NCBI GenBank assembly: GCA_030746635.1
Contig: JASLMH010000002.1
Span: 6,348 to 70,347, forward strand
Length of the DNA stretch: 64,000 nt
DNA from: Alphaproteobacteria bacterium
GTDB lineage: Bacteria > Pseudomonadota > Alphaproteobacteria > GCA-2731375
Reading direction: 5' to 3'
Of the stretch, positions 9,098-64,000 are shown piece after piece. The position numbers were made by a program, and so were the translations under genes. The notes under the pieces were generated by a model, which did not search any database, was not told the origin of the DNA, and worked only from the letters and a program-made list of their open reading frames with translations. Every line of letters starts with the position of its first letter. Positions within the stretch are counted from its first letter, which is position 1.

Positions 9098-11236
9098 CTA
9101 GGCCGCCGCGGCCTGCCATTGCGGTGTTTCGACGAAGCCGCTGTCGACTTCCAGCCGTCGCATGATCTCTTCGATGGTGCCGCGTTCCTCCGGACTGAAG
9201 GTGCCGTCGGCCTCGGCCACGCACATGCACAGCAGGACCAGCAGTTTCGATAGTTCGGGACGCCGCTTCAGCGGGTCCAGCTTGTCCAGATCGACCACCG
9301 CGCCTGCCGCCAGCGGCTCGGCCGGGCGGTCGTCGGCGGCCGCCGATCGGGCCACGATCCTGGCTTGGAGGTCCTGGGCGTATTGGTTGTAGGCGCTGCG
9401 GAACGATTCACCGGTGAAGCGGCCGTAGATGCTCTGGCCGAAACGCTGCCAGAATTCCCCCAGGGCGCGGGTTTCCCGGTCGTCATGGAGTTCGTCGGCA
9501 TAGACCACGTTCGCCGTGGCCACGGTGAAGGCTTGCTCGACCGCCGCGTCGTCGTCGATGCCGCGACACTCGTACCTGATGCGGTCCAGCACTTGCGCGT
9601 CGAGGAACATCGAGCGGATGCGCTCGCTGGAGGTGAGCTGGCGGTTCTTGCGGTACCAGCTCGGGATCAGCGCGCCGACCAGCAGGCCGACGAAGCCGCC
9701 CTTGAGAACGAAAACCCAAGGGTTCCAGCGGCCCCGGAACCCGGCATCCTTGGTGCCGTCGATGATGCCCCCGACGCCCTCCATCCAATAGAAGGCGATG
9801 ACGCTGGCGCAGGACATGACGACACAGGTCAGGATCGCGTCCCAGTAGGCGGGGCGGCGCAGGTCGAGCGTGCCGTGGCTTCTGGTGCGTCCGGTCAGAT
9901 AGGCGATGGTAATGGCCAGCGCCACCGATTGCAGGACATAAGGATACGACCAGGCCAGGTCTCTGCCGACCAGTTGCAGGTTCTCGGCCAGCGGCTTGAA
10001 ATCGACCAGGTTGAGGAAGAACCGCAGCATGAAGGACAGCGACAGCCAGAACACCACCGCACAGGCGCCGGAAATGAAATACTCATGCCAGGGTCGCGAT
10101 GCCTTGCGCCGCTCCGCCGTCGAAGAGCCGAACCAGTTTGGCAGCAGCGCGGCGACCACCGCCGAAGCGTATATGCTGGCCATCAGCACCGCGACGAAGA
10201 ACACCGGGTTCAGGTGCAATTCGCCCTGCTTGGTGCTCATCAGGTTCTTGACGGCGGATTCGCCGATCGCCAACACGACGAAAACCACCACGATGCACCA
10301 GAACAGCAACAGCAGTTGCCCGGTGGTCAGTACGCCGCGGCCGACGCTGCCGTCGCCGAAGCCAAGCGAATGCAACTGTTCCCGTCGGGCCGCTTCGGTC
10401 TTCTCGGCGTACAGCACGGCTCGGGCGATCAGGTTCGTGCTGTCGCGGATCAGGACCTCGTTGAAGGACTGGAATATCCGCTTCTTCTCGTCCAACAGCT
10501 GGTTCTCGTATTCCGACACCTCGTCCTTTTCGGCCAGTTCGCCCTTGAGCTGGAAGAAGGATTTCGCCAGTTCGGTGACCTTGTCGAACTGGGCCTGAGC
10601 CGAGAGGAAGGCCTCGTTGTTCTCCTTGGCGAATTCGATATAGGCCTTGCGCGAGCTTTCCCGCCAGCCCTGCAACAGGCTGCAAAGCGCGGCGGCGACC
10701 GGCCAGCCGTAGGCGGGGCTGTCCTCGGTGTCGAAGCTCAACACATCCTCGTCGATGCCACGTTGCCTTGCCGCCGCATGCACGTTGGTGGCGTTGGCGT
10801 TGTTGAACTCGAACGGCACCCAGGCCATCTGCACCGCCAGTTCGTTTGCCTCCGCTGGAATCTTGCCCAGGCTCCAGATCCGAGCACGCAGGCCGGTGTC
10901 GGCCTTTTCCAGGCCTGGGATGGAGAGCAGCAGCACCGTCAGGCCCAGGGCGACCAGGATCGGCACCGCCAGGCCCTGATCCAGGGTCGTCTTGATCTCT
11001 TCCGGGATGGTGATGCCGAAAATCGGCAGCAGCTTCAGGATCTGCGTCACGATCCCGGGGAAGCTCACCAGCAGCATGCCAACGGTGAAGTAGAAGACGA
11101 GCAGGACGCCGACATAGAGCGCCAGCGCGCGGTAGTATTGAAAACAGGTCGTGGAACTCCGGTGCGATTTCGGCGTGCGGTACCTGGAATAGCCATGTGC
11201 GGCGACGAAAGCCGCGCCTAGAACCCATTCAGACAT
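9098..11236 (-). CDS. large polytopic membrane protein with central coiled-coil region and C-terminal TerB-like domain (hypothetical)
   Basis: Start MSEWVLGAAF with GGGAGG SD 7 nt upstream. Two N-terminal TM helices, a coiled-coil soluble region of about 200 aa, then about six TM helices. The C-terminal LSKLLVLLCMCVAEADGTFSPEERGTIEEIMRRL resembles a TerB-family motif. Confidence 0.55.
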   Translation of the reverse strand: MSEWVLGAAFVAAHGYSRYRTPKSHRSSTTCFQYYRALALYVGVLLVFYFTVGMLLVSFPGIVTQILKLLPIFGITIPEEIKTTLDQGLAVPILVALGLTVLLLSIPGLEKADTGLRARIWSLGKIPAEANELAVQMAWVPFEFNNANATNVHAAARQRGIDEDVLSFDTEDSPAYGWPVAAALCSLLQGWRESSRKAYIEFAKENNEAFLSAQAQFDKVTELAKSFFQLKGELAEKDEVSEYENQLLDEKKRIFQSFNEVLIRDSTNLIARAVLYAEKTEAARREQLHSLGFGDGSVGRGVLTTGQLLLLFWCIVVVFVVLAIGESAVKNLMSTKQGELHLNPVFFVAVLMASIYASAVVAALLPNWFGSSTAERRKASRPWHEYFISGACAVVFWLSLSFMLRFFLNLVDFKPLAENLQLVGRDLAWSYPYVLQSVALAITIAYLTGRTRSHGTLDLRRPAYWDAILTCVVMSCASVIAFYWMEGVGGIIDGTKDAGFRGRWNPWVFVLKGGFVGLLVGALIPSWYRKNRQLTSSERIRSMFLDAQVLDRIRYECRGIDDDAAVEQAFTVATANVVYADELHDDRETRALGEFWQRFGQSIYGRFTGESFRSAYNQYAQDLQARIVARSAAADDRPAEPLAAGAVVDLDKLDPLKRRPELSKLLVLLCMCVAEADGTFSPEERGTIEEIMRRLEVDSGFVETPQWQAAAA

Positions 11237-11641
11237 CGGCAACCCTCCCCATCTCGCAGGCACCCCCGCCTGCCTTCGGGCGGCGTGCCTACGACGCCGC
11301 GCCGGTCATTCCGATAGTCCGGGACCCCTGGGTCCCGCCAAGCCGCTGGCCATCGGCCACACGATCACTGCTTGGACCAACTATTGGACCGCCGGTCTGG
11401 CCGACCGGCGGCGATTGTCGATGGTTCGAGCGATAGGCTCATTCGGTCCGATAATCCGAGGAGCTGCCCCAATTTTGGCTCATGAACCGACGCCCTCACA
11501 CCGACTCCTCAAACTAGACGCGATTCTAGCCCAAGATGGCGCCGCGAGGAAGGTTGGGGCGGTTTTCTCGCCGTATGGTAGCGGCCGCGGCCTCGATGGC
11601 GCACCAGCGGCCGGGGATTTTCCAGCCGCCGCCGACGGGGC

Positions 11642-14894: not shown

Positions 14895-15308
14895 TCAGGC
14901 GGGACGGATCACCGGCAGGGTCAGATCGTCCGTGGCGTCCTCGAAATCCACCCGCACCGGCAGGCCGATACGCAGCCCTTCGGGGTCCAGGTCGCGGGCC
15001 TGGGCGCACATCCGCACGCCCTCGTCCAGGTCGACGATGACCAGCACCAGCGGCAGGTCCCCCTTGAAGCCGGGGTGGAAGGCGTGGTGCGAGATGGTCC
15101 AGCTATGCACCTGGCCCTTGCCGCTGGCCTCCATCCATTCGGTGTCCATGGAGAAACAGGCATCGCAGACCGGGCGCGGGTAGTGCCTGACCTTGCCGCA
15201 GGCGCCGCATTTCTGCAGCACCAGTCGGTGTTCCTTCATGGCCTCCCAGAACGGCCGGCTTTCCTCGTTCGGCGGGGGTAGCGGCTTGTCGTAAGTGGCG
15301 GCCGTCAT
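14895..15308 (-). CDS. Zn-ribbon/OB-fold DUF35 family protein (thiolase partner)
   Basis: CGACGK...CDAC zinc ribbon followed by an OB fold. GAGGAA SD. Lies 4 nt downstream of the thiolase-like gene, the classic SCP-x thiolase plus DUF35 pair. Confidence 0.75.
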   Translation of the reverse strand: MTAATYDKPLPPPNEESRPFWEAMKEHRLVLQKCGACGKVRHYPRPVCDACFSMDTEWMEASGKGQVHSWTISHHAFHPGFKGDLPLVLVIVDLDEGVRMCAQARDLDPEGLRIGLPVRVDFEDATDDLTLPVIRPA

Positions 15309-15312
15309 GGTC

Positions 15313-16467
15313 CTAGTTCCTCATGATGGCGATGGAACCGTCGCCCAGGTCGCCGTAGCCGGTGACCAGGCCGATCTCGGCATCCGCCACCTGGGCCTTG
15401 CCGCCGTCGCCGCGCAACTGTTTGACCAGTTCGCAGACGTGGTTCATGCCGATGATGTGCGATTGCGAGAGCAGGCCGCCATGGGTGTTGATGGGCAGTT
15501 CGCCGCCCAGGGCGATGCGGCCGCCGGATACGAAATCGCCGCCCTCGCCCTTCTGGCAGAAGCCCAGATCCTCCAACTGGCACAGCACCGTGTAGGTGAA
15601 GCAGTCATAGACCTCGGCGACGTCGATGGCCTCGTGGCCGATGCCGGCCATGGCGAAGGCCCGGGGCGCCGCCTTGGCCAGGCCAATCTTGGTCAGGTCC
15701 GGCCGCTGGCTGATGGCGGAGGGCGAGTCGGGATGGCCCTCGGCCACGCCCATGATGTAGATCGGCCGCCGCGCCAGGTCCTTGGCCCTCTCGGCGCCGC
15801 TGATGATCACGGCGGCGGCGCCGTCGCTTTCCAGGCAGCAATCGAACAGCCGCAGCGGGTCCGAGATCATCCGCGAGTTCTGGTGGTCCTCGACGGTCAG
15901 CGGCTTCTTCATCACCGCGTTGTCGTTCAGCATGGCGTGGTTGCGCATGGTCACGGCGATCTCGGCGAATTGCCGCGAGGTGGTGCCGTACAATTCCATG
16001 TGCCGGCGGGCCATCGGCGCGTAAAGCTGCGCCGGGGCGATGTTGCCGCTGGGCATCTCGTATTCGCCGAAGACCCGGAACTGGGGAATTGCCTGGGCCC
16101 GGCCGCCGATGCGCGGGCCGGAATAGCCGTTGCGGCCGATCGGGATCAGCACGTGGTTGGCGGCGCCGGCGACGATCGCCGATGTCGCGGCCTGGATGGC
16201 GGCCACGGCGCTGGCGCCGCCCAGGGGCGTGACGGCGGAAAACCGCAAATCCTCGATGCCCAGGTTGGTGATGAATTCCTCCGCCACCATCTCCATGTTG
16301 CCATAGGGTATGACGCCGTCGATGTCGCCGGGTTGCAGCCCGGCATCGGCGATCGCCCTCAACGCGGCTTCCATCTGCAAGGCGGCGACGCTCCTGCCCG
16401 AGCCGCGGGTATATTCGGTTTCGCCGACGCCGGTGACGCAGCAGCTTTCCCGAAGACCGGTCATCAT
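15313..16467 (-). CDS. thiolase-like (SCP-x/nonspecific lipid-transfer-protein type) acetyl-CoA acyltransferase
   Basis: Thiolase-fold pattern with catalytic Cys in CVTGVGET. The track ORF starts at a TTG; the first ATG is at 16467. Confidence 0.8.
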   Translation of the reverse strand: MMTGLRESCCVTGVGETEYTRGSGRSVAALQMEAALRAIADAGLQPGDIDGVIPYGNMEMVAEEFITNLGIEDLRFSAVTPLGGASAVAAIQAATSAIVAGAANHVLIPIGRNGYSGPRIGGRAQAIPQFRVFGEYEMPSGNIAPAQLYAPMARRHMELYGTTSRQFAEIAVTMRNHAMLNDNAVMKKPLTVEDHQNSRMISDPLRLFDCCLESDGAAAVIISGAERAKDLARRPIYIMGVAEGHPDSPSAISQRPDLTKIGLAKAAPRAFAMAGIGHEAIDVAEVYDCFTYTVLCQLEDLGFCQKGEGGDFVSGGRIALGGELPINTHGGLLSQSHIIGMNHVCELVKQLRGDGGKAQVADAEIGLVTGYGDLGDGSIAIMRN

Positions 16468-16803
16468 CAACTCTCCACGTTCGATCTCGTTTCCGCCGGC
16501 GATTATCCGGCAACCGCGAAGGCCATGCCAGCCCCGTGAACTGGATTTTTCGGCCGCCGGGCGTTATAAGGGCGCCGGCGCCGCTTGGGCGACCCTGAAA
16601 GGACGATCATCGTGATCCTGCGCGAAGATATTCTGCGCGAACGAATTACCCAGCCGCCGGGCGGCTGTCCCGGCCGGGAAGGCGACGCCGCCGCCGTTGC
16701 CGCCCGATGTTGCGCCTGATCCGGACCTGGCGTTAAGGGCGTATCGCCGCCGAAGGGCGGTATCACAAGCGAAAATCCAAAATCATTGACGGGACGAATC
16801 CCG

Positions 16804-28375: not shown

Positions 28376-28543
28376 GCGGTCGATCCTTTTGCGGTCGTTG
28401 GGCCGACTTCATACTCCAATACGCGGCCCGGTGGAAGCCGCCCGGCCGGCCGCCGGAAGGCTTCCGCCGAAGGGGCGGTTGACCAATCGCCGCCCGCCGC
28501 CGATATTCCGCCGGCCCATTCCTGTGTAACAGCGGTCCTAGCC

Positions 28544-30166
28544 ATGCCCAAGATCCAGTCTCAACTCGACACCAACAGCGATGCCTACCTGGAAAACCGC
28601 GCCGGGATGCTGGCCAGGATCGCGGAAATGCGTGAATTCGAAGGGAGGATCCACGCGCGCTCGGAAAAAAGCCGCGAGCGGTTCGAGAAACGCGGCCAGT
28701 TGCTGCCCCGCGACCGGCTGGATCTGCTGCTGGATCGGGGCGCGCCCTGGCTCGAATTCTCCACCCTGGCGGGCTACCAGACCTTCGATGACGATGGCGA
28801 GCAGAACATCACCGGCGCCCGCCTGATCACCGGCATCGGTACGGTTTCGGGGGTTCGCTGCGTCATCATCGTCGACGATTCGGGCATCACCGCCGGCGCC
28901 CTGCATACCTACGGCGTCTACAAGATGATCCGCGCCTTCGACATGGCGCTGGAAAACAAGATGCCGGCGATCCACCTGGTGCAATCGGCCGGCGCCGATC
29001 TGTTGGCCTATGTGCCCGAGACCTGGCAGAAGGCCGGCCACATGTTCCAGCGCCAGGCGCAGCTTTCGGCCGCCGGCTGCCCGGTGATCACCGTGGTGCA
29101 CGGCTCCTCCACCGCCGGCGGCGCCTACATGCCGGGCATGTCGGACTACGTGGTGATGGTGCGCAAGCAGGCCAAGGCCTTCCTGGCCGGGCCGCCGCTG
29201 CTGCGCGCCGCCACCGGCGAGATCGCCGATGACGAGACCCTGGGCGGCACCGACATGCATGCCTCGACCTCCGGTCTGGCCGAGCACGTGGCGGATGACG
29301 ATGCCGAGGCGGTCCAGGTCTGCCGCGACATCGTGCGGCGGCTGAACTGGGCGAACCAACTGCGGCCCGGCCTGGCGCGCCGCCATGAGGAGCCGGCCTA
29401 CGATATCGACGAGATCTGCGGCCTGGTGTCGATGGACTACCAGAAGCCCTATGACGTGCGCGAGCTGATCGCCCGGCTGGTCGACGGCTCGGACTTCCTC
29501 GAATTCAAGGCGATGTACGACAGCCAGACGATCTGCGGGCACGCCGAAATCCAGGGCTTCCCCTGCGGCCTGATCGGCAGCAACGGCCCGATCACCCCCG
29601 AGGGCGCCACCAAGGCCAGCCAGTTCATGCAATTGTGCAGCCAGTCCGACACGCCCTTGATCTATCTGCACAACACCACCGGCTTCATCGTCGGCGCCGA
29701 GCCGGAAGCCCAGGGCATGATCAAGCACGGCGCCAAGATGATCCAGGCGGTGACCAACGCCACGGTGCCGCGCATCACCCTGATGATCGGCGCCTCGTTC
29801 GGGGCCGGCAACTACGCCATGTCCGGTCGCTCCTACCAGCCGCGCTTCCTGCTCGGCTGGCCGAACTACAAGGCCGGGGTGATGGGCTCGAAACAGGCCG
29901 CCCTGGTGATGCGGATCGTCAACGAGGCCGCCGCCGCCCGCAAGGGCGAGCCGATGGACGAGGCCGCCCTGGATGCCTTGCACCAGCAGGTGATCGACCT
30001 CTACGAGCCGATCTCCACCTCCTACTACCACACCGCCCGGCTGGACGACGACGGCATGATCGACCCGCGTGACAGCCGCAAGGTGCTGGGCCTGTTGCTG
30101 TCGGTCTGCGACGAGGAGGCCCGGCGCACCGTCCGTCCCAACACCTTCGGCGTCGCCCGGTTCTAG
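28544..30166 (+). CDS. acyl-CoA carboxylase carboxyltransferase (beta) subunit, MCCase/GCCase-beta-like, tandem copy 1
   Basis: 540 aa. Two crotonase-like CT domains typical of methylcrotonyl/propionyl-CoA carboxylase beta chains. The N-terminal part of track ORF 27575..30166 is antisense of purB. Confidence 0.85.
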   Translation: MPKIQSQLDTNSDAYLENRAGMLARIAEMREFEGRIHARSEKSRERFEKRGQLLPRDRLDLLLDRGAPWLEFSTLAGYQTFDDDGEQNITGARLITGIGTVSGVRCVIIVDDSGITAGALHTYGVYKMIRAFDMALENKMPAIHLVQSAGADLLAYVPETWQKAGHMFQRQAQLSAAGCPVITVVHGSSTAGGAYMPGMSDYVVMVRKQAKAFLAGPPLLRAATGEIADDETLGGTDMHASTSGLAEHVADDDAEAVQVCRDIVRRLNWANQLRPGLARRHEEPAYDIDEICGLVSMDYQKPYDVRELIARLVDGSDFLEFKAMYDSQTICGHAEIQGFPCGLIGSNGPITPEGATKASQFMQLCSQSDTPLIYLHNTTGFIVGAEPEAQGMIKHGAKMIQAVTNATVPRITLMIGASFGAGNYAMSGRSYQPRFLLGWPNYKAGVMGSKQAALVMRIVNEAAAARKGEPMDEAALDALHQQVIDLYEPISTSYYHTARLDDDGMIDPRDSRKVLGLLLSVCDEEARRTVRPNTFGVARF

Positions 30167-30250
30167 ACGATATGCGGCATCTTCGTTGACGGACGCCCGT
30201 CCGCCAACGATAGTTCGCCGGCCTTTTTTGTAGTTGTCACGGTCGATTTC

Positions 30251-31873
30251 ATGCCCAGAATCCAGTCTCAACTCGACACCAACAGCGATACCTTCCAAGA
30301 GAACCGCGCCGGCATGCTGGCCAAGATCGCCGAATTGCGCGGGTTTGAAGGTCGGATCCAGGCGCGTTCGGAACAAAGCCGCGAGCGGTTCGAGAAACGC
30401 GGGCAGTTGCTGCCCCGCGACCGGCTGGATCTGCTGCTGGATCGGGGCGCGCCGTGGCTCGAATTCTCCACCCTGGCCGGCTACCGGACCTATGACGACG
30501 ACGGCGAGGACAACATCACCGGGGCCCGCCTGATCACCGGCATCGGCACGGTCTCCGGCGTCCGCTGCGTCATCATCGTCGACGATTCGGGCATTACCGC
30601 CGGCGCCATCCATACCTATGGCGTGCACAAGATGATCCGTGCCTTCGACATGGCGCTGGAAAACAAGATGCCGGTGATCCACCTGGTGCAGTCGGCCGGC
30701 GCCGATTTGCTGGCCTACGTGCCCGAGACCTTTCAGAAGGGCGGCGGCATGTTCCACCGGCAGGCGAAACTGTCCGCCGCCGGCTGCCCGGTGATCACCG
30801 TGGTACACGGCTCCTCGACGGCCGGCGGCGCCTACATGCCGGGCATGTCGGATTACGTGGTGATGGTGCGCAAGCAGGCCAAGGCGTTCCTGGCCGGGCC
30901 GCCGCTGTTGCGCGCCGCCACCGGCGAGATCGCCGATGACGAGACCCTGGGCGGCACCGACATGCATGCCCAGACCTCCGGCCTGGTCGAACATGTGGCC
31001 GAGAACGACGCCGAGGCGGTACAGATCTGCCGCGACGTGGTGCGGCGGCTGAACTGGTCGAAGGGCCTTCGCCCCGGCCTGGAACGCCATTACGACGAAC
31101 CGGCCTACGATATCGACGAGATCTGCGGCCTGGTGTCGATGGACTACCAGAAGCCCTATGACGTGCGCGAATTGATCGCCCGGCTGGTCGACGGCTCCGA
31201 CTTCCTGGAGTTCAAGGCGCTGTACGACACTCAGACGATCTGCGGCCATGCCTCGGTGCAGGGCTTCCCCTGCGGCCTGATCGGCAGCAACGGCCCGATC
31301 ACCCCGGAAGGCGCCACCAAGGCCAGCCAGTTCATGCAATTGTGCAGCCAGTCGGGCACGCCGCTGGTCTACCTGCACAATACCACCGGGTTCATCGTCG
31401 GGACCGAACCGGAAGCCCAGGGCATGATCAAGCACGGCGCCAAGATGATCCAGGCCGTGAGCAACGCCACGGTGCCGCGCATCACCCTGTTTATCGGCGC
31501 CTCGTTCGGGGCCGGCAACTACGCCATGTCCGGCCGCTCCTACCAGCCGCGGTTCTTGCTGGGCTGGCCGAACTACAAATGTGCCGTGATGGGCTCGAAA
31601 CAGGCCGCCCTGGTGATGCGGATCGTCAACGAGGCCGTCGCCAAGCGCAAGGGCGAACCGATGGACGAGGCGGAATTGGATGCCCTGCACCAGCAGGTGG
31701 TCGACCTCTATGAGCCGATCTCCACCGGCTACTACCACACCGCCCGGCTGGACGATGACGGCATGATCGATCCCCGCGACAGCCGCAAGGTGCTGGGCCT
31801 TCTTTTGTCGGTTTGCGACGAGGAGGCCCGGCGCACCGTCCGTCCCAACACCTTCGGCGTGGCCCGGTTCTAG
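30251..31873 (+). CDS. acyl-CoA carboxylase carboxyltransferase (beta) subunit, tandem copy 2
   Basis: 540 aa, about 93% aa identity and about 90% nt identity to copy 1 over the full length. Confidence 0.85.
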   Translation: MPRIQSQLDTNSDTFQENRAGMLAKIAELRGFEGRIQARSEQSRERFEKRGQLLPRDRLDLLLDRGAPWLEFSTLAGYRTYDDDGEDNITGARLITGIGTVSGVRCVIIVDDSGITAGAIHTYGVHKMIRAFDMALENKMPVIHLVQSAGADLLAYVPETFQKGGGMFHRQAKLSAAGCPVITVVHGSSTAGGAYMPGMSDYVVMVRKQAKAFLAGPPLLRAATGEIADDETLGGTDMHAQTSGLVEHVAENDAEAVQICRDVVRRLNWSKGLRPGLERHYDEPAYDIDEICGLVSMDYQKPYDVRELIARLVDGSDFLEFKALYDTQTICGHASVQGFPCGLIGSNGPITPEGATKASQFMQLCSQSGTPLVYLHNTTGFIVGTEPEAQGMIKHGAKMIQAVSNATVPRITLFIGASFGAGNYAMSGRSYQPRFLLGWPNYKCAVMGSKQAALVMRIVNEAVAKRKGEPMDEAELDALHQQVVDLYEPISTGYYHTARLDDDGMIDPRDSRKVLGLLLSVCDEEARRTVRPNTFGVARF

Positions 31874-55532: not shown

Positions 55533-56600
55533 ATGCAAATAGCGGTAGATCGCCTGACCGAGTTGGGCCAGGCCATCGTTCATCATGGCGGCGCCGAGGC
55601 GGCCGAGGCGGCCCAGGTGACCCACTACCTGATCGACGCCAACCTGGCCGGCCACGACAGCCACGGCATCGGCATGCTGCCGGCCTACATGCTGGGTATT
55701 CGCGAGGGGGCGCTGGTGCCGGGCGCCGAAATCAGCGTCGAAAACGACCGCGGGCCGTTCCTGCTGATCGACGGCAACGCCGGTTTCGGCCAAGTGATCG
55801 CCAAACAGGCCATGGAACTGGCCATCGCCCGGGCCAAGGATTTGGGCATCGCCGTGATGGGTCTGAAGAACTCCTACCATATCGGCCGGGTCGGCGCCTG
55901 GGGCGAGATGGCGGCGGCCGAGGGCTTCATCTCGATCCACTACGTCAACGCCCATTCGCCGAATTCCCTGGTCGCGCCCCATGGCGGCACGGACTCCCGC
56001 TTCACCACCAACCCCTATTGCACCGCCCTGCCGGCCACCAACGGGCCGCCGGTCGTGCTCGACATGGCGACCAGCAAGGTGGCCATGGGCAAGGTGCGGG
56101 TGGCCCACAACAAGGGCGTCGAGGTGCCGCCCGACTGCCTGATCGACCACATGGGCAACCCGACCAACGACCCCGGCGTGATGTTCGCCGAGCCCAAGGG
56201 CGCCCTGCGCTCCATGGGCCTGCACAAGGGCTATGCCCTGGCGGTGATCTGCGAGGCCCTGGCCGGCGGCTTCACCGGCGGCGGCACCTTCGGCCCGGAC
56301 AGGGTGGGACCGGGCAAGATCATCAACAACATGCTGACGGTGCTGATCGATCCCGACGCCTTCGGCCAGCGCGCCGCCTTCGAGGCCGAGATCGACCGCT
56401 TCACCGAATGGGTCAAGACCTCGCCGCCGGCCCCCGGCGTCGACGAGGTGATGGTGCCGGGCGACCCGGAGCGCAAGGCGCGGGCCGACCGCCTGGCCAA
56501 CGGCGTGCCGGTCGACGAGCGCACTTTCGAGGAACTGCTGGAAACCTGCGAACTGGTCGGCCTGAGCCGCGACCAGGCGCTGCGCATCGTCGGCAATTGA
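55533..56600 (+). CDS. Ldh2-family (malate/L-lactate/ureidoglycolate/sulfolactate dehydrogenase-type) NAD(P)H oxidoreductase
   Basis: 355 aa; HDSHGIGM and PF02615-like motifs throughout. AGGAAG SD. Confidence 0.8.
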   Translation: MQIAVDRLTELGQAIVHHGGAEAAEAAQVTHYLIDANLAGHDSHGIGMLPAYMLGIREGALVPGAEISVENDRGPFLLIDGNAGFGQVIAKQAMELAIARAKDLGIAVMGLKNSYHIGRVGAWGEMAAAEGFISIHYVNAHSPNSLVAPHGGTDSRFTTNPYCTALPATNGPPVVLDMATSKVAMGKVRVAHNKGVEVPPDCLIDHMGNPTNDPGVMFAEPKGALRSMGLHKGYALAVICEALAGGFTGGGTFGPDRVGPGKIINNMLTVLIDPDAFGQRAAFEAEIDRFTEWVKTSPPAPGVDEVMVPGDPERKARADRLANGVPVDERTFEELLETCELVGLSRDQALRIVGN

Positions 56601-57112
56601 CCGGGCCGTCCCTGACCCTGGTGCTGGGCGGTGCCCGTTCGGGCAAGAGCGCCTTCGCCCAGGCCCGGGCCGAGGCAACCCGGGGCGCCTGCGTCTATCT
56701 CGCCACCGCCCGGGCCGGCGATGCCGAGATGGCGGCCCGGATCGCCGCCCATCGACGGCAACGCGGGCCGCGCTGGCGCACGGTGGAGGAACCGTTGGCC
56801 CTGGCCGCGGCCCTGCGCCGGGAGGCCGGAGCGGACCGCATCGTGCTGGTCGACTGCCTGACCCTGTGGCTGAGCAACCTGTTGGCGGCCGGGGCCGACA
56901 TGGCGGTCGAACGGGACGGCCTGGTCGCCGCCTGTGGCGAACTGCCCGGGCCGGTGATCCTGGTCTCCAACGAGGTCGGCCAGGGTATTGTCCCCGATAA
57001 TGCCCTGGCCCGCCGCTTCATCGACGAGGCCGGCTGGCTGCACCAGCAACTGGCTCGGGTGGCGGGCGAAGTCTTTTTTCTAACCGCCGGGCTGCCGCAA
57101 CGGCTGAAATAG
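56597..57112 (+). CDS. cobU: bifunctional adenosylcobinamide kinase/adenosylcobinamide-phosphate guanylyltransferase
   Basis: P-loop LVLGGARSGKS, about 10 aa from a TTG start that overlaps the upstream TGA (TTGA). About 171 aa, CobU/CobP size. Confidence 0.75.
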   Translation: MTGPSLTLVLGGARSGKSAFAQARAEATRGACVYLATARAGDAEMAARIAAHRRQRGPRWRTVEEPLALAAALRREAGADRIVLVDCLTLWLSNLLAAGADMAVERDGLVAACGELPGPVILVSNEVGQGIVPDNALARRFIDEAGWLHQQLARVAGEVFFLTAGLPQRLK

Positions 57113-57967: not shown

Positions 57968-59407
57968 TCAGCCCGCCGTCGATTCCTCGAGACTGACCCG
58001 GCGCAGGTATTTCTTGCCGATCCTCAGGGCCTTGGCAGGGAAGTGTTCGGCCAGCAGGCCGATGCCGTAAAGCAGGTATTCGCCGTCGACATAGGCGTTT
58101 GGCGCCGTCGGCTTGAGGCTCCAGGGATTTGTCGGGCTGAACAGGGCCGCCTGCAATATTTTCTCGGGATGGCGGCCGTATTTGAAGATGCCGCCGGTGC
58201 CGATCAGGTTTTTCGTATCCAGCAGGTTCTTGCCCTGCTGCACCTGGATCGCCCCCACGACGCTGTATTCCTGGCGGAGCGTGCCGGCGTGCCGCTCGAC
58301 CGCGATGGTCGTGGCCGACTGGGCGAGCATGGCATCGATGCTGAATTCGACCTCGCCGGCGGGAATGTAGCCGACATCCTCCGACAGGGCCCGGGCATGG
58401 GCTTGCAGATCCATCGACTGGCCGGCCGCCGATGGGTCGAGTTCCGCCAGTCTGGCCTGGCAGGTCTCCTCGCCGACCATGTCGTGGATCGACGGCGCGT
58501 TGTACCTGATGCCCAGATCGCCTTCCACGGTGCGCTTCACCCTGGCTTCGGGCAGTCCCTTGACGATGGTCTGGGCATCGCTGGGACGGCCGTCGTCCAC
58601 CGAATGGACGTTGGTGGTGGCGCCGCCGACTTCGACCACCAGCAGACTCCCCAGGCCCGGTTCGTCATCGCTGCCGTCGGCCAGCAGGGCGGCCGCGTGC
58701 AGCGTTGCCATGGGCGTCGGCACGATGTCCCGGCCGGTGAAGTCCCGCGCCTTGCTCAACCCCTTCGCGTCGGTGATCCGCGTGATGAAGATGTCGCGGA
58801 TCAGGTCCTGCGCCGGTTCGACCTCCACCTTGTCCAGGCTGGGCAGGACGTTCCTGGCCGTCGCCACGGTTTTTCCCGCCGCTTGCAGGATCTCCCGTAC
58901 CTGGCCGGTGACCACCCGGTTGCCGGCGACCAGTATCGGGCAATCGATCGTCGAGCCGGCAAGCATGCGGGCATTGTGGATAATCACCGCCTTGTCGCCG
59001 CCGTCGGTGCCGCCGGTGAGCAGGATGATGTCGCAGGACGCCCCTTCGACTTCGCCGATGATCTCCCGGTCGACCTCGAAACCATGGGCGCAAACCACCT
59101 TGGCGCCGGCGCCCAGGGCGGCCCTTCGCGCCGCCTCCAGCGTCAAATCGGGGACCAGGCCGATGGCCGCCATGCGCAGCCCGCCGGCGGCGCTGGAGGA
59201 GGCGTATTTGCCTTGGACGTCCCCCTCGTCGAAGCCGCAGTCGCGGCTGAGATCGGCCAGGGCGTTGTCCAGCCCGATGGTGATGTCATGCTCGATGGTG
59301 GTCAGGGCCTGGGCCCGTCCCAGGACCTCTTCCCGTTCCAGATCGACGGCGATGATCTTCGTATAGGTGCTCCCGAAATCGATCAGCAGGTGGATATCCA
59401 TGGTCAT
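57968..59407 (-). CDS. glmL: glutamate mutase accessory/reactivase-like protein GlmL (ASKHA fold)
   Basis: N-terminal LLIDFGSTYTKIIAVDL actin-like ATPase motif, about 479 aa, sitting next to a glmS-like gene. Confidence 0.7.
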   Translation of the reverse strand: MTMDIHLLIDFGSTYTKIIAVDLEREEVLGRAQALTTIEHDITIGLDNALADLSRDCGFDEGDVQGKYASSSAAGGLRMAAIGLVPDLTLEAARRAALGAGAKVVCAHGFEVDREIIGEVEGASCDIILLTGGTDGGDKAVIIHNARMLAGSTIDCPILVAGNRVVTGQVREILQAAGKTVATARNVLPSLDKVEVEPAQDLIRDIFITRITDAKGLSKARDFTGRDIVPTPMATLHAAALLADGSDDEPGLGSLLVVEVGGATTNVHSVDDGRPSDAQTIVKGLPEARVKRTVEGDLGIRYNAPSIHDMVGEETCQARLAELDPSAAGQSMDLQAHARALSEDVGYIPAGEVEFSIDAMLAQSATTIAVERHAGTLRQEYSVVGAIQVQQGKNLLDTKNLIGTGGIFKYGRHPEKILQAALFSPTNPWSLKPTAPNAYVDGEYLLYGIGLLAEHFPAKALRIGKKYLRRVSLEESTAG

Positions 59408-59421
59408 CGCCTGCCGTGCAT

Positions 59422-59847
59422 TCAGTCGTTCATGCCCAGATCGCCTTTGAGCGCCGCGATCACCTCCGTCACTTTCACCGTGTTGGGATAGACCCGGTCA
59501 AAGCCCATGTCGCCGAACCTCTGTTCGATGGCCGGCCAATTCCTCTCCAGTTCCAGCGGCGCCGCCAGGGTCCCGCCGGCATAAAGAAGGATGTCCTTGA
59601 GCCCCGCCTCGATGCATTTGTCCCGCAGGCCCTCGCAGTCCAGAATCCCCATGCCGTACATCGAGGAAACCAAAATGGCATCGGCGTTGGTTTCGATGGC
59701 GGCATTGACGAAATCCTCCTGCGGCACCACGGCGCCCAGGAAGGTGACCTCGAATCCGGCTTCCGTGAGGGCCTTCTGCAGGACCCAGGCGCCGATCATA
59801 TGGGCATCGGCCCCGATGGTGCCGATGACGATGTTTCCACTCAACAT
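59422..59847 (-). CDS. glmS: methylaspartate (glutamate) mutase S subunit, B12-binding
   Basis: From MLSGNIVIGTIGADAHMIGAWVL; DxHxxG B12-binding motif. Strong end-to-end resemblance to clostridial GlmS (...EDFVNAAIETNADAILVSSMYGMG..DCEGLRDKC.EAGLK....GG....WPAIEQRF.DMGFDRVYP). GAGAGG SD; the track start at 59883 lacks an SD. Confidence 0.8.
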   Translation of the reverse strand: MLSGNIVIGTIGADAHMIGAWVLQKALTEAGFEVTFLGAVVPQEDFVNAAIETNADAILVSSMYGMGILDCEGLRDKCIEAGLKDILLYAGGTLAAPLELERNWPAIEQRFGDMGFDRVYPNTVKVTEVIAALKGDLGMND

Positions 59848-59875
59848 GTCGGCCTCTCGATGTTTCGCCGGGTCC

Positions 59876-61402
59876 TTAGCCATCGCCCAACGCCTGGCCC
59901 TCGGCGGCCAGGCTGGCCGCCATTTCGGCGAGGTTCCGCTGATCCACCTTGTCGCCGACGGTCGGCAGCGCCTCGAGGATAATCAGCCGCTCGGGCACCT
60001 TATAGTAGGCAAAACCCTGGTCCAGGAGATACCGGCGCAGGGGCTCGAGCTCGACGGTGCGGCCGGTCTTGGGAACCACGCAGGCGCAGACCCGTTCGCC
60101 CAGGATCGGGTCGGGCACGGGCACCACCGCCACCTGGTCGATATCCAAATGGGTCCGCAGCAAGGTCTCGATCTCGACCGGGATCACCTTCTCGCCGCCC
60201 CGCACGATGACGTTCTTCATCCGTCCGATGATCGAATAGTTGCCTTGATCATCCAGGCGCGCCAGATCGCCGGTCTGAAACCAGCCGTCGATCCAGCTGT
60301 CGTGGCCCGCGGCGCCCAGATAGCCGCCGGCGCAGCACGGACCGCGACCGATCAAGTGGCCGGTTTCACCCTTGGGCACGTCCGCGCCATCGGCATCGAC
60401 GAGGCGGAATTCGGTGCCGCCGCGGGGCTTGCCGACGGTGCGCCGGCGAACCTCCGGCGGATCGGCGGGTAGGGCGCAGGCCCAGCCACCGAAATCCGCG
60501 CCGCCATAGGTGGAGACGACGGGTGCGCCAGTGGCGGTCTCGAGCTCCTCGGCCAGGGAGGCGGGCATCACCGCACCCGAGGTGTACCAAATGCGGACGC
60601 TGGCGGTGCCGACGCCATCGAGGCCGGGCGCCAGCATGGCCAACTGGGCCGGCGTGGCGCAGACCAGGCTTGGCCCCTCGCTCTCGATCAGTTCCAGCGC
60701 CCGCTCGGTCGAGAAAATCGGCATGGTGACGATACTGGCGCCGATCATGGGCGCCCCCAGCCAGGCCGGCCGGGCCGGGCCGGCGCCGTGCGAGAGGACC
60801 AGGAAGGTGTCCTCCGGCCGCAAATCCAGGATTTCGATCTGCGCCTCGGCGCGCCGGCTGGCGGCCTCGCCGGTGTAGTGGGCGATCTTCGGAATGCCCT
60901 CCGATCCCGACGTCGCCAGCGCATGGACCATCTCGCCCAAGCCCAGCGCCGCCGCCGGCTCCGGTCGCGGTCCTTCGAGACTGGGAAGCCTCTCTTCCGG
61001 TAGTGTCAGCCGTTCCGGCGGCTGCTCCAGGCGGCCGCGGATCTCGGCGCATTCGGCGGCGTAATCGCGGCCGCGGAACTGCCCCTTGGAAATCAGCAGG
61101 GCCGGGCCGGTGCTTTCGAGGATGGCCGTCAATTCCCGCATGCCCTGGCTGGCCGGCACGGGAATAAAGGGGTGTCCGCCACGTTCGCAGGCGAAGCGCA
61201 GCAGGTTCCATTCGACGCAATTGGGCAACCAGGCGACGATGGGCCGGCCGCGGGCGAAACCTTGCGTCGACAACCAGCCGGCGGTGGCGTCCATCCAGGC
61301 GGCGGTCTGCCCCCAGGAGAGCCGGAAGCGGTCGTCGGCGAGCGCCGGGGCGGCGGGCCGCTCGAAGCCGTGTCGGGCGACCGCCGCCGTGATGGTCTCC
61401 AT
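59876..61402 (-). CDS. AMP-dependent synthetase/ligase (acyl/aryl-CoA ligase family)
   Basis: Start METITAAV (ATG 61402); its ATG overlaps the upstream gene's TGA by 1 nt (TGATG). SGSEGIPK (degenerate AMP motif), YGGADFGG and GEKV lysine-region motifs. The track ORF's 45 aa N-terminal extension overlaps the neighbouring gene. Confidence 0.8.
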   Translation of the reverse strand: METITAAVARHGFERPAAPALADDRFRLSWGQTAAWMDATAGWLSTQGFARGRPIVAWLPNCVEWNLLRFACERGGHPFIPVPASQGMRELTAILESTGPALLISKGQFRGRDYAAECAEIRGRLEQPPERLTLPEERLPSLEGPRPEPAAALGLGEMVHALATSGSEGIPKIAHYTGEAASRRAEAQIEILDLRPEDTFLVLSHGAGPARPAWLGAPMIGASIVTMPIFSTERALELIESEGPSLVCATPAQLAMLAPGLDGVGTASVRIWYTSGAVMPASLAEELETATGAPVVSTYGGADFGGWACALPADPPEVRRRTVGKPRGGTEFRLVDADGADVPKGETGHLIGRGPCCAGGYLGAAGHDSWIDGWFQTGDLARLDDQGNYSIIGRMKNVIVRGGEKVIPVEIETLLRTHLDIDQVAVVPVPDPILGERVCACVVPKTGRTVELEPLRRYLLDQGFAYYKVPERLIILEALPTVGDKVDQRNLAEMAASLAAEGQALGDG

Positions 61403-61701
61403 CAGTCTTTTTCCAGCGCCTCCAGCACGGTGAAATAGTCGCTGTAGGGTGGCGCGTCGAAAATCGGCGGCAGTTCCTCGACGATGCGCACGCTGCAGGG
61501 CTCGGTATCCCGGGCGCCGACCACCGAACGCAACCACAACAGCGGCTCGCCCGCGAGGGGCGTTTCGGAAATAACCGCACGCACGGCGATACCCCGATAC
61601 TTGTGCCGCCCCGGCGTCAGGTCGCGAAGGGTCAGCACCACCTCACGGCCCGAAACGGCGCGCTGGCGATCACGGACGAATGCCTCGTATTCCTGTGCCA
61701 T
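61402..61701 (-). CDS. small hypothetical protein (99 aa) translationally coupled between UbiD-like and ligase genes
   Basis: Start MAQEYEAFV with TAGGAGC SD, 11 nt after the UbiD-like stop. Its stop overlaps the ligase ATG. No recognisable motif. Confidence 0.5.
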   Translation of the reverse strand: MAQEYEAFVRDRQRAVSGREVVLTLRDLTPGRHKYRGIAVRAVISETPLAGEPLLWLRSVVGARDTEPCSVRIVEELPPIFDAPPYSDYFTVLEALEKD

Positions 61702-61712
61702 GTCCTGCGCTC

Positions 61713-63134
61713 CTACAGTCCCAGCTTCCGCCAACGCGCGTTCACGCGATCCTGAACATCCTGGGAATACATCGAATCCAGGGTCGCGCGGACCGGTGTC
61801 GTCTCGGCCGGCCAGTCCGGCGGCCAGGTGGCGTCGAACGCGACACTGGCCCCCAGCTTACCCAGCCGCTCCTCCTGGCTGTAGGCGGGGGTCAGGGCGT
61901 TGGCCCGGCCCTCGTAACGATGAATGTGGGTGCCGCGGTCGGGGTGGCATTTGGTGGAGAAAGCGTGGATTACCGCGGACTGGTTGAAGACGTCCACATC
62001 GTCGTCGACGACGATGATCTTGGACATCAGGGCGCGTCGCGCGGTTAGGACTTCGACCACCTGGCGGGCAACCTCGGGGCCGCCCCGGCTGACCGAAACG
62101 ATCGCCATATGGACGCCGCTTTCCGGCGGAATGTAGACCTCGGACACCGGCACCCCGTGCCGTTCCAGACGCCGGCGGATGGCGATGGCGCCCGAGATCG
62201 AAGTCGTCACGGCGCTGGAATCCATGAAGCCGGTGGTGTCGATCGTAAAGATCGGATCGCGGCGGTGGGTGATGGCCGTCACCCGAGCGCAGACGGAATT
62301 GCCCATCTCGCCGCTGCGATAGCCCGGATATTCGCCGTACGGTCCTTCCTGGGCGATCTTGTCGGGATAGATCTCGGCCTCGACGACGATCTCGGCGGAG
62401 GCCGGGACATAAAGGTCCGAGGTCTCGCACTTGATCAATTCCACCGGACTTTCGCCCAAGCCGCCGGCCAGTTCGACCTCGTCGCCGCCGATGCGGAAGG
62501 TCGCCGTGGAGCTCAAATGGCTGGGCTGGTCGGTGCCGATGGCGATGGCGATCGGCATCACTTCGCCCTTTGGCGCGTAGCCGTCCAGCAGCATCTTGCC
62601 CAAGTGACTGGTCGGCCGTGGATAGCCGGTCATGTGGCGTTCGTCGTGGATCATGAAGCGATACATGCCCCAGTTCACCCAGCCGCTGTCGCGGTCCTTG
62701 GAGACCACCAGATCCCAGGTGCCCAGATAGCGGCCGCCATCGCCGTCATGCACCATGGGCACCGGCAAATCGAAAAGATCGATCTCATCCCGCGGGATGA
62801 TCACTTCCTTGCAGGCTGAATCGTTGACCAGGATCGGCGGGATGGGGTTCTGCTCGCGCTCGGCATAGATCCTGTAGAGTTCGCGTATCGGCGTATCGGC
62901 GGGCAGGCCCAGCGCCACGGCATAGCGCCGCCAGCCGGTCACCGGGTTGGCGAGTACCCGCCAGCCGGCATAGTCCTTGACGTTGTTGAACATGAAGGCG
63001 GGGCCGTCGCGCTCGCAACTGAGGCGCCCGATGCCGGCCAACTCCTGGTCCCAATCCACTTCGTCGTCGATGGTCACCAGGTCGCGACTGGCCGCCAACG
63101 CCTCGGTGAACTCCCTGAGATCCTTATGTGCCAT
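61713..63134 (-). CDS. UbiD-family (prFMN-dependent) reversible decarboxylase
   Basis: 473 aa. MAHKDLREFTEAL N-terminus and the EGPYGEYPGY motif (compare UbiD EGPYGDHTGY); UbiD-fold pattern throughout. AAGGAGG SD. Confidence 0.85.
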   Translation of the reverse strand: MAHKDLREFTEALAASRDLVTIDDEVDWDQELAGIGRLSCERDGPAFMFNNVKDYAGWRVLANPVTGWRRYAVALGLPADTPIRELYRIYAEREQNPIPPILVNDSACKEVIIPRDEIDLFDLPVPMVHDGDGGRYLGTWDLVVSKDRDSGWVNWGMYRFMIHDERHMTGYPRPTSHLGKMLLDGYAPKGEVMPIAIAIGTDQPSHLSSTATFRIGGDEVELAGGLGESPVELIKCETSDLYVPASAEIVVEAEIYPDKIAQEGPYGEYPGYRSGEMGNSVCARVTAITHRRDPIFTIDTTGFMDSSAVTTSISGAIAIRRRLERHGVPVSEVYIPPESGVHMAIVSVSRGGPEVARQVVEVLTARRALMSKIIVVDDDVDVFNQSAVIHAFSTKCHPDRGTHIHRYEGRANALTPAYSQEERLGKLGASVAFDATWPPDWPAETTPVRATLDSMYSQDVQDRVNARWRKLGL

Positions 63135-63236
63135 GTTTCGCCTTTCCTCCTTGGCCGGGAACGTTGTTGTTTCCCGAATTGTGTACGAATTGCTCGAAAG
63201 AAGACACTTGTCCCGGCTGGCGGCGGGCGATGACCC

Positions 63237-64000
63237 TCACGGCAGGATCGAGGCGAACTGGATATCTTCGACCACCATGTCGAAGTCCGCCTGGCGGCCG
63301 TCGCGCTGCTCGCGCTCGGCGATCTTTTCGCGATGGTAGTCCTTCACCTCCCTGGGCAGGGGGATATCGCCGGTCTCCAGATAGCGGACGGCGTTTTCCG
63401 CATCCCGTACCAGCAGGACCTTGCCGTTGCTGTGCTTCCACGGCGTCACCATGGTATCGACCCAGCCGGCCTCGACGCCGGCGCACAGACCGATGGCGAT
63501 GTCGCCGTCGCCGATCTCCAGGCATTTCTCCATCAGCGTCCTGACCTCCAACTCGATCATCGCCTCTTCCTGACGGAGTTCGTCGTTATCGGGCAGCTTC
63601 TGGGTGCTCATCAGGGTCAGCATGTGCCGCGCCAGCCTGACCGACTTCGCCATGCCTTCCTTGGTCGGCGTGGCCAGTGCCTCGTCCTGGCATTTCAGGA
63701 TGACGCCCGGGAAGCCGCCCATCACCGGAATGATGGTATTCCAGGCGATCATCGCGTTGGCTTCCTCCTCGCCGGGCGCCCAGGCGCCCAGGAAGGGGAA
63801 ACTGCCGGTGAAGAACTCGACGTCGGCGTAGCCGAAGCGCCGGCAGTATTCGTAACAGAGCCTCTCGGTGACCCGGATCATGGCGATGTCCTGCACCAGG
63901 TTCATGTTCAGGCCGTGGGAGAGGAACTGATATTTCACGCCCTGTTCGGCCGCCAGCAGGGCCTCCGAGACATGCACGAAGCAGTGGAAGCCGGCGCTGT
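63237..64000 (-). CDS. glmE: methylaspartate (glutamate) mutase E subunit, C-terminal part (N-terminus beyond window edge)
   Basis: TEALLAAEQGVK and the C-terminal ...AGVEAGWVDTMVTPWKHSNGKVLLVRDAENAVRYLETGDIPLPREVKDYHREKIAEREQRDGRQADFDMVVEDIQFAS match the C-terminus of clostridial GlmE as recalled from memory. The frame stays open to the window end. Confidence 0.65.
   Translation of the reverse strand, partial: SAGFHCFVHVSEALLAAEQGVKYQFLSHGLNMNLVQDIAMIRVTERLCYEYCRRFGYADVEFFTGSFPFLGAWAPGEEEANAMIAWNTIIPVMGGFPGVILKCQDEALATPTKEGMAKSVRLARHMLTLMSTQKLPDNDELRQEEAMIELEVRTLMEKCLEIGDGDIAIGLCAGVEAGWVDTMVTPWKHSNGKVLLVRDAENAVRYLETGDIPLPREVKDYHREKIAEREQRDGRQADFDMVVEDIQFASILP

Follow-up and report, generated by a model that had tools for sequence, protein, structure and literature searches.

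The B12-dependent carbon-skeleton mutases described to date are, to our knowledge, few, with glutamate mutase as the sole characterised representative of its own fold family. Enzymes of the UbiD family, which depend on prenylated flavin mononucleotide (prFMN), may be paired with activation by coenzyme A (CoA), as in the HmfF/HmfD couple acting on furandicarboxylate and in phthaloyl-CoA decarboxylase, which operates together with a CoA ligase or transferase. In glutamate mutase, R66, R149 and E171 bind the glycyl group that migrates, with E171 contacting the substrate amine and R66/R149 forming the “upper arginine claw”, whereas R100 and Y177 bind the acrylate portion of the substrate (PMC10947579). 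A putative anaerobic benzene carboxylase cluster with the order abcD (ppcC-type)-abcA-bzlA-ubiX has been reported from Peptococcaceae enrichment cultures (PMC5852087), and an MmgE/PrpD-family methylsuccinate isomerase from the Cupriavidus/Pseudomonas itaconate cluster epimerises a 2-methyl-branched dicarboxylate (PMC12290011). Here we describe a locus that draws on several of these systems at once. It lies on the minus strand at positions 57968-64000 of a 64,000-nt stretch of DNA from a member of the Alphaproteobacteria (assembly GCA_030746635.1, contig JASLMH010000002.1, positions 6,348 to 70,347; hereafter, the window), and it combines genes for a GlmE-like adenosylcobalamin (AdoCbl) mutase with those for a UbiD-type enzyme, a small protein and a CoA ligase. 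Two widespread, uncharacterised modules are joined here in a lineage-specific operon fusion, probably a composite operon in which a self-contained three-gene cassette has been inserted between the E and S genes of an uncharacterised AdoCbl mutase operon.

The six tightly packed open reading frames (ORFs) were all confirmed by an ORF check of the window, five of them being complete and glmE′ partial. The features of the locus are as follows:

63237..64000, minus strand: 3′ half of glmE′, the E subunit of a GlmE-like adenosylcobalamin mutase (PF06368, E=6e-63)
L001:8447-9898: full glmE′, 483 aa, on JGI contig L001
63135..63236, minus strand: glmE′-UbiD spacer, including the UbiD ribosome-binding site AAGGAGG; its last bases are part of the left repeat copy
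63133..63142, minus strand: direct repeat GGCGAAACAT, left copy, abutting the UbiD start codon
61713..63134, minus strand: UbiD-family prFMN-dependent (de)carboxylase of the PpcA-like clade, 473 aa (PF20695, PF01977 and PF20696)
61402..61701, minus strand: PpcC-like protein of 99 aa, presumed small partner of UbiD (PF09662, E=5e-4)
59876..61402, minus strand: ANL-superfamily acyl/aryl-CoA ligase, 508 aa from the ATG (PF00501 and PF13193)
59860..59869, minus strand: direct repeat GGCGAAACAT, right copy, 6 nt past the ligase stop codon
59422..59847, minus strand: glmS′, the B12-binding S subunit, 141 aa from the second ATG (TIGR01501, PF02310)
57968..59407, minus strand: glmL′, a MutL/GlmL-type mutase accessory protein (NF040745, 546 bits; PF13941, E=1e-153)

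Read off the sequence, the junctions comprise 100 nt between glmE′ and the UbiD gene, 11 nt between the latter and the small ORF, a 1-nt overlap (TGATG) of the small ORF with the ligase gene, 28 nt between the stop codon of the ligase gene and the second glmS′ ATG, and 14 nt separating glmS′ from glmL′. These are exactly the six genes and spacings given in an earlier reading of the window made without database searches (hereafter, the sequence-only reading), and its assignment of the products to GlmE/GlmS/GlmL-type, UbiD-type and AMP-dependent ligase families was confirmed by Pfam and NCBIfam models. The longest glmS′ ORF starts at 59883 (153 aa; the JGI call) and shares 8 nt with the end of the ligase gene, stop codon included; judging from its relatives, the true start is probably the second ATG at 59847, the 25 nt preceding which match the glmE′-glmS′ spacer of scaffold L143.

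Extension of the contig, also suggested by the sequence-only reading, was achieved with JGI contig L001, which is 100% identical to the window across 12,288 bp, adds 9 kb beyond it, and supplies the missing N-terminus of GlmE′. The identical UbiD protein is found on nine contigs, and the six considered here (from two JGI metagenomes, one NCBI metagenome-assembled genome, or MAG, and three Logan SRA assemblies) represent six different samples or assemblies. Every one of them that reaches far enough has glmE′ upstream of the UbiD gene, and the small ORF and the ligase gene downstream. Because the same neighbours recur in six different samples or assemblies, the gene order is not an assembly artefact.

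Full-length GlmE′ matches the PF06368/MutE fold over its entire length and is 38-39% identical to the crystallised Clostridium cochlearium enzyme (1cb7_B), in an alignment spanning 1cb7_B residues 4-470; it scores 341.2 bits against the TIGR01503 equivalog, under the cut-off of 390.1. The active-site positions compare as follows:

Position 66: R in the canonical enzyme, Q in GlmE′ of the window (F by HMMER)
Position 100: R in the canonical enzyme, R in GlmE′
Position 149: R in the canonical enzyme, V in GlmE′
Position 171: E in the canonical enzyme, S in GlmE′
Position 177: Y in the canonical enzyme, E in GlmE′
Position 181: Y in the canonical enzyme, H in GlmE′
Positions 326 and 330: K and E in the canonical enzyme, K and E in GlmE′

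These assignments are the same in the HMMER alignment and in three MAFFT alignments, except for position 66. In the acrylate-binding pair R100 is kept and Y177 is replaced by E, and K326 and E330, which we take to be contacts to the adenosyl ribose of the cofactor, are both present. The same class of replacement was seen in all 42 clade members fetched from their loci.

A profile search with GlmE′ against 1.84 billion representative proteins returned 794 family members, and 106 full-length representatives among the best 150 were compared. The exact canonical signature is carried by 23 of the 106, despite only 35-64% identity to the crystallised enzyme, and about 80 have other, non-glutamate signatures, the canonical fraction being biased by the ranking of the list on similarity to the GlmE′ profile. 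R100, K326 and E330 are near-universal across all 106. Since canonical representatives with as little as 35-64% identity keep the signature, its loss marks a different specificity and not a by-product of divergence. From this residue pattern we conclude that GlmE′S′L′ is a predicted mutase that has the glutamate-mutase fold, yet is not a glutamate mutase. Some PF06368 representatives, many of them canonical in signature, are about 640 aa long, with the GlmE-like part beginning near residue 160. GlmE′ itself falls within a tight clade, comprising over 100 clusters at 60-92% identity and distributed among Burkholderiales, Desulfobacula, Actinomycetia, Rhodospirillales and others, the members of which are labelled “hypothetical protein” at NCBI. 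A literature search returned no description of a hydroxyglutarate, oxoglutarate, methylsuccinate or glutarate mutase.

The S and L subunits are closer to the canonical ones. GlmS′ scores 159.5 bits against TIGR01501, over the cut-off of 135.8, matches PF02310, and keeps the base-off/His-on, cobalamin-binding DxHxxG motif as DAHMIG; GlmL′ scores 546 bits against NF040745, over the cut-off of 475. An S subunit with DxHxxG, an E subunit with the invariant K326/E330 and a GlmL-type accessory protein place the system among GlmES-type mutases in the broad sense. Thus, where the sequence-only reading spoke of glutamate mutase genes, the GlmE/S/L-type family stands and the identity with glutamate mutase does not, the E subunit scoring 341 against 390 bits and having lost the signature. 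That reading had named failure of the two key products to align with GlmE or UbiD as grounds for its refutation; both do align, although alignment with a family is weaker than identity of function.

The usual setting of the mutase clade was established from six contexts fetched by protein identity and from 47 metagenome loci. The usual order is glmE′-glmS′-glmL′; none of the 47 metagenome loci contains the cassette, and glmS′ lies directly 3′ of glmE′ wherever sequence past glmE′ was recovered. In L087-L091 and L143-L147, glmE′ is followed by glmS′ with no cassette between them, L087 carrying a cassette farther along the same contig. An MmgE/PrpD-family protein follows glmE′-S′-L′ in at least 20 clade loci, and other companions are a TRAP or TctC carboxylate transporter and an IclR or GntR regulator, with a thiolase/DUF35 pair, acyl-CoA dehydrogenases, an enoyl-CoA hydratase and an AMP-ligase as frequent further ones. 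No Pfam-annotated locus of the clade contains a methylaspartate ammonia-lyase. The PrpD-like proteins of the clade matched no NCBIfam model, and our search of the literature found nothing relevant that joins GlmE/GlmL with PrpD/MmgE.

Several loci of the clade (L096, L099, L090/L104/L105, L144/L145 and L146) have tandem glmE′ pairs, about 72% and about 80% identical to that of the window, before a single glmS′; their signatures differ (e.g., QRRVTSEHKE vs MRRVISGHKE), which suggests that two E subunits may share one S subunit. In the Rhodospirillaceae MAG represented by L144 (12104-14927), the mutase genes are followed by a thiamine pyrophosphate-dependent acetolactate-synthase-like enzyme, an aspartate dehydrogenase (NF009825, 351 bits, over cut-off) and a RidA-family protein, and are preceded by an Amidohydro_2 protein; unlike the PrpD-type context, this one hints at amino or 2-oxo acid chemistry. 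The thiolase/DUF35 pair that flanks GlmE′-type mutase genes in L087, L088 and L101 has a counterpart in the window at 14895-16470 on the minus strand, 42 kb from the locus, where a thiolase-like gene (PF22691) stands beside one for a DUF35/ChsH2 OB-fold protein.

Turning to the cassette, its UbiD protein has the three UbiD Pfam domains and scores 258.7 bits against TIGR00148, over the cut-off of 244.85; among the specific models, phenyl_P_alpha (phenylphosphate carboxylase alpha) scores highest, with 362 bits against a cut-off of 564.6. Residues N154, R159, H177, E219, E263 and E268 align with N168, R173, H191, E233, E277 and E282 of AnFdc1, of which we take N168, H191 and E233 to be ligands of the metal and prFMN phosphate, and R173, E277 and E282 to be catalytic. 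All six are invariant in 14 relatives, and, as judged from the alignment, the predicted UbiD enzyme has every catalytic and cofactor residue of Fdc1-type enzymes. Among solved structures it scores 217 bits with Fdc1, 173 bits with HmfF (6h6x) and 55 bits with phthaloyl-CoA decarboxylase. Chemistry of the phthaloyl-CoA decarboxylase type (PDB 8oz5/8pmk) was considered and rejected, the 55-bit score indicating that the UbiD protein is not a close relative.

The 99-aa protein, listed as a small unknown protein in the sequence-only reading, belongs by sequence to the PpcC (phenylphosphate carboxylase gamma-subunit, PF09662) family in a broad sense. Its own PF09662 match is 20.7 bits (E=5e-4), under the gathering score of 25, and 18 of 20 members of its family match PF09662 at E<=0.01 (best E=1.3e-10). 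Its sole family match in NCBIfam is the phenylphosphate carboxylase gamma model, at 21.4 bits against a cut-off of 135.55, and a profile of the small-protein family found no meaningful match in the PDB. The ligase (PF00501, E=9e-46; PF13193, E=1e-11) reaches no NCBIfam equivalog cut-off, and its nearest solved relatives are the salicylate-AMP ligase 5wm2 (182 bits), then DhbE/EntE. Because UbiD is nearest to PpcA, the small protein is PpcC-like and the ligase is nearest to salicylate- and dihydroxybenzoate-activating enzymes, the relatives of the three predicted proteins point to an aromatic acid rather than mesaconate.

One genome per GTDB species was scanned; relatives of the cassette UbiD were found in 368 stretches, and the best 80 loci, all from MAGs, were examined. 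The hosts are mostly Rhodospirillales, Binatia, Actinomycetota and Burkholderiales, uncultured bacteria of oceans, soils and groundwater. In 78 of 81 loci the small ORF lies downstream of the UbiD gene, and the ligase is either of a FadD-like type, located downstream, or of a PaaK-like type, located up- or downstream of UbiD. The commonest extra neighbours are a divergent IclR gene and a TctC binding protein, the latter present in 35 of 81 loci. It should be noted that crude ORF clustering of neighbours was noisy (antisense ORFs, GC-rich DNA), and clusters were used only for the commonest families (PaaK-like ligase, TctC), after representative sequences had been read.

Glm genes occur within 10 kb of the cassette only in the lineage of the window and in L032, among the best 80 loci. 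In the latter, a Burkholderiales MAG (L032/L087), the mutase module and the cassette lie within 8 kb of each other, and the Rhodospirillaceae MAG CAZBQG01 has both a cassette (L010) and a mutase cluster (L144), on separate contigs. The synteny of UbiD with GlmE, which the sequence-only reading had proposed to follow across genomes, therefore takes the form of adjacency in two lineages and is absent from the remaining best 80 loci. UbiX, which it had proposed to look for nearby, has no homologue in the window by Pfam scans, JGI annotation or tblastn, and is located within 10 kb of the cassette in only 3 loci; a copy may lie elsewhere in the genome. The literature search found nothing that combines glutamate mutase with UbiD, in line with the claim that the enzyme combination is undescribed, and for UbiD with a CoA ligase and TctC it found only a bagremycin paper.

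Two further features of the neighbourhoods were observed. A second UbiD paralogue stands beside the cassette in two distant lineages (L087:10618-12087 and L019:11833-13278, both on the minus strand); the two copies share 78% identity with each other and about 31% with UbiD of the cassette, and the paralogue could be a beta-like partner or a separate enzyme. A trio coding for a biotin carboxyl carrier, a biotin carboxylase and an HMGL-like/PYC_OADA carboxyltransferase (L090:1563-4938 and L093:5161-8536) adjoins the GlmE′ locus in L090 and the UbiD cassette in L093, the homologues being 33-51% identical, and is thus a neighbour common to both modules, in different genomes.

Comparison with uninterrupted relatives suggests how the two modules were joined. 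The nearest GlmE′ (92% identical, TARA scaffold L143) is separated from glmS′ by a 36-nt spacer with no cassette, and relatives with 80-84% identical GlmE′ likewise carry glmS′ 36 nt past glmE′. The last 25 nt of the L143 spacer are recognisable in the window directly 5′ of the glmS′ start. The 10-mer GGCGAAACAT is present in only two copies in the 64 kb of the window, against an expectation of 0.2, and these copies flank the cassette; at the place equivalent to the right repeat, the uninterrupted spacer of L143 reads GGCAAAACAT. Conversely, the nearest cassettes (L007-L010, UbiD 83-90% identical) stand alone. Those in L007 and L010, as well as the less closely related one in L019 (79%), are accompanied by a divergent IclR gene and by palindromic boxes, both of which are missing at the window locus. 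The box, with a palindrome-like consensus of about TGTGCGCAnTACGCACA / GTTCGnAATGCGCACA, is present in two copies in each IclR-UbiD intergenic region (L007:9843-10000, L010:6054-6160 and L019:9840-10000), and the boxes of these stand-alone cassettes, judging by their sequence and position, are probably IclR operators. The region around the UbiD ribosome-binding site resembles those 5′ of UbiD in L007 and L009; 5′ of the UbiD gene of the window there is no clear copy of an operator, and the resemblance to a remnant is too weak to claim. On this comparison of spacers, the simplest reading is that a 3.27-kb cassette was recently inserted in the E-S spacer.

Because R100 is kept and the R66/R149/E171 site is lost, the mutase would anchor its substrate carboxylate via R100 and move a non-glycyl group, carrying out a radical 1,2-rearrangement of the form X-CH2-CH2-COO- -> CH3-CH(X)-COO-, in which X is not glycyl. 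An aromatic or alpha,beta-unsaturated acid would lose or gain CO2 through the action of the cassette UbiD, and the cassette ligase would convert the resulting acid into a CoA thioester. Decarboxylation is the likely direction, because the TctC carboxylate-binding protein (and IclR) adjoin the cassette in other genomes; the usual substrate of the cassette would probably be an imported (di)carboxylate, and its product a mono-acid CoA ester. Having lost its own IclR regulator, the cassette would depend on the mutase promoter and be co-transcribed with the mutase genes. That the six genes form one operon, as the sequence-only reading had it, is consistent with the data, from spacing. Whether both modules act in one pathway or are merely co-expressed is nearly evenly balanced in our estimate, leaning slightly to the latter. 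Enforced co-expression, the second adjacency in a distant lineage and co-presence in CAZBQG01 speak for one pathway. A bolder proposal, which we put forward only tentatively and as a whole, is that GlmE′/GlmS′ is a new AdoCbl carbon-skeleton mutase acting on a non-amino carboxylic acid and, in this lineage, sharing one hitherto undescribed catabolic route with the PpcA/PpcC-like prFMN decarboxylase and the aryl-CoA ligase; that its substrates may be a 2-oxo-, acyl- or aryl-substituted propionate/methylmalonate-type pair, or methylsuccinate/glutarate; and that PF06368 may hide dozens of mutase specificities, at least about 80 of the 106 clusters examined being devoid of the glutamate signature.

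A number of points weigh against a composite operon functioning in this way. The modules are near-universally independent elsewhere, and their adjacency is seen in only two lineages. The direct repeat could be coincidental microhomology, and no source could be assigned to about 70 nt of the left spacer. Only the spacing of the six genes suggests co-transcription: no sigma-70-like promoters were found on scanning 56.9-64 kb, and terminator-like sites there were no commoner than in shuffles, both scans being uninformative for a genome of 65% GC. Finally, the chemistry proposed for both modules is drawn entirely from residues, nearest families and neighbours.

The sequence-only reading had the locus convert glutamate to 3-methylaspartate by GlmE/S/L and then to mesaconate, which here would take a lyase encoded elsewhere, with UbiD decarboxylating mesaconate or mesaconyl-CoA and the ligase forming the CoA ester. 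The S and L subunits, which exceed the NCBI glutamate-mutase equivalog cut-offs, the PF06368 fold of the E subunit, the Fdc1-type catalytic triad of UbiD, used on alpha,beta-unsaturated acids, and the aspartate-dehydrogenase homologue and RidA after the mutase genes in L144, hinting at amino-acid chemistry, would all fit this route. We nevertheless regard it as very unlikely: R66, R149, E171 and Y177 (PMC10947579) are all replaced, and the E subunit is under its equivalog cut-off; no methylaspartate ammonia-lyase, for which that reading proposed to look nearby, is present among the ORFs annotated or scanned with Pfam across the 64-kb window or in the adjoining 9 kb; MmgE/PrpD proteins are the normal partners of the mutase clade and the lyase never is, and the cassette is normally unlinked to Glm genes; and UbiD, the PpcC-like protein and the ligase all have aromatic-acid relatives. 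The composite operon is preferred to the glutamate/mesaconate pathway because the mutase lacks the glutamate-holding residues and because the cassette is an independent module that was probably inserted. The opposite direction of the cassette reaction, as proposed for benzene, naphthalene and phenylphosphate carboxylases, in which UbiD together with the PpcC-like protein adds CO2 to an aromatic compound that is not itself an acid and formation of the aryl-CoA by the ligase drives the reaction, would agree with the phenylphosphate carboxylase alpha model as the best specific match of UbiD, with the PpcC family of the small protein, with the match of the gene set to abcD-abcA-bzlA (PMC5852087) and with the resemblance of the ligase to aryl-acid activating enzymes. 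This too appears improbable, if less so than the glutamate route, as TctC, the commonest extra neighbour (35/81 loci), argues for an imported acid, the hosts mostly belong to lineages not known for anaerobic arene degradation, the window locus has no phosphatase (delta) or second UbiD (beta) subunit, and UbiX is rarely adjacent.

A harder alternative to set aside is that the fusion is functionally meaningless, a tolerated product of illegitimate recombination in which two enzymes with unrelated substrates share only a promoter. The cassette is found in none of the 47 mutase-clade metagenome loci, about 78 of the 80 cassette loci are without Glm genes, the nearest relatives of both modules are unlinked, and the flanking 10-nt repeat fits an accidental microhomology event. 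Set against this, none of the six genes is disrupted, their coding composition is normal and their translational coupling is preserved; the arrangement recurs in six independent samples or assemblies; the modules are side by side in a second, distant lineage and both present in the genome of one relative; and the cassette has no regulator of its own, so that it depends on the mutase promoter. We consider a meaningless fusion a serious possibility, albeit one that we do not favour. An assembly chimera of two loci can, for practical purposes, be dismissed: every source is a metagenome assembly or a MAG, yet the glmE′-UbiD and small ORF-ligase junctions recur in all of the six contigs that reach far enough, and the 12.3 kb shared with L001 are 100% identical. 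The composite operon is thus the reading that we retain.

Upstream of glmE′ in L001 are a divergent FAD (flavin adenine dinucleotide) oxidoreductase, a cytochrome-c-like protein, a 502-aa Amidohydro_2 protein and a Liv-type ABC transporter. Downstream of the locus in the window lies an ICMT-like membrane protein, followed on the other strand by two genes:

56597-57112, plus strand: CobU (PF02283, adenosylcobinamide kinase/guanylyltransferase), just downstream of the mutase genes
55533-56600, plus strand: Ldh_2 malate/lactate-type dehydrogenase (NF007504, 428 bits, over cut-off)

That the cobalamin-salvage gene cobU adjoins genes of a B12 enzyme may not be a coincidence. Elsewhere in the window, three minus-strand ORFs have no Pfam match at E<=1e-5: 1171-2487 (438 aa) and 9098-11263 (721 aa), both with coding-like codon composition, and 28538-31738 (1066 aa), which overlaps another long ORF and is uncertain as a real gene.

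The locus is chiefly of interest as an entry point to a non-glutamate GlmE-like mutase. The GlmE′ subfamily is well conserved and widespread, with an active site that cannot bind glutamate in the known manner, and is a concrete target in the search for radical rearrangements of a new type. The cassette adds another uncharacterised module, which hundreds of uncultured bacteria carry; it is built like the proposed benzene carboxylase yet is found in other hosts, and the fusion of both in one operon provides a testable hint to their substrates. Automatic labels such as “methylaspartate mutase” and “phenylphosphate carboxylase” mislead at such loci.

Comparison with described systems places the cassette nearest, in architecture, to the benzene carboxylase cluster abcD-abcA-bzlA-ubiX, in which genes for a UbiD large subunit, a PpcC-type protein and an aromatic-acid CoA ligase are likewise adjacent. 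The likeness is one of architecture; that cluster is itself putative and has, as far as we know, no biochemically proven activity. The cassette of the window differs in having no adjacent UbiX, its hosts are mostly not strict anaerobes, and TctC/IclR suggest an imported acid. Of the ORFs annotated in the window, none was seen to encode a benzoyl-CoA reductase. The phenylphosphate carboxylase PpcABCD of Thauera/Aromatoleum provides the best specific model for UbiD (alpha) and the only family match for the small protein (gamma), yet both score below the equivalogs (362 vs 564.6 and 21.4 vs 135.55), and neither the beta (second UbiD) nor the delta (phosphatase) subunit, nor a phenylphosphate synthase, is encoded near the cassette in the window. 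The HmfF/HmfD and phthaloyl-CoA decarboxylase routes follow the same logic of a UbiD enzyme combined with CoA activation of an aromatic (di)carboxylate; neither, as far as we know, uses a PpcC-like subunit.

With glutamate mutase GlmE/GlmS and GlmL of Clostridium cochlearium/tetanomorphum (1cb7, 1i9c, 6h9e), the mutase of the window shares the fold, the three-protein organisation, R100, K326, E330 and DxHxxG, and its S and L subunits pass the equivalog cut-offs. It differs in R66→Q, R149→V, E171→S, Y177→E and Y181→H, in an E subunit only 38-39% identical, and in the gene order E-S-L, as opposed to S-L-E-mal, with no ammonia-lyase; the usual neighbours of its clade are instead MmgE/PrpD proteins and carboxylate transporters. 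In this respect, the methylsuccinate isomerase offers a parallel to the MmgE/PrpD protein that follows glmE′-S′-L′ elsewhere in the clade, though none is present at the window locus: by analogy, an MmgE/PrpD epimerase would suit the chiral 2-methyl-branched product of a GlmE-like mutase.

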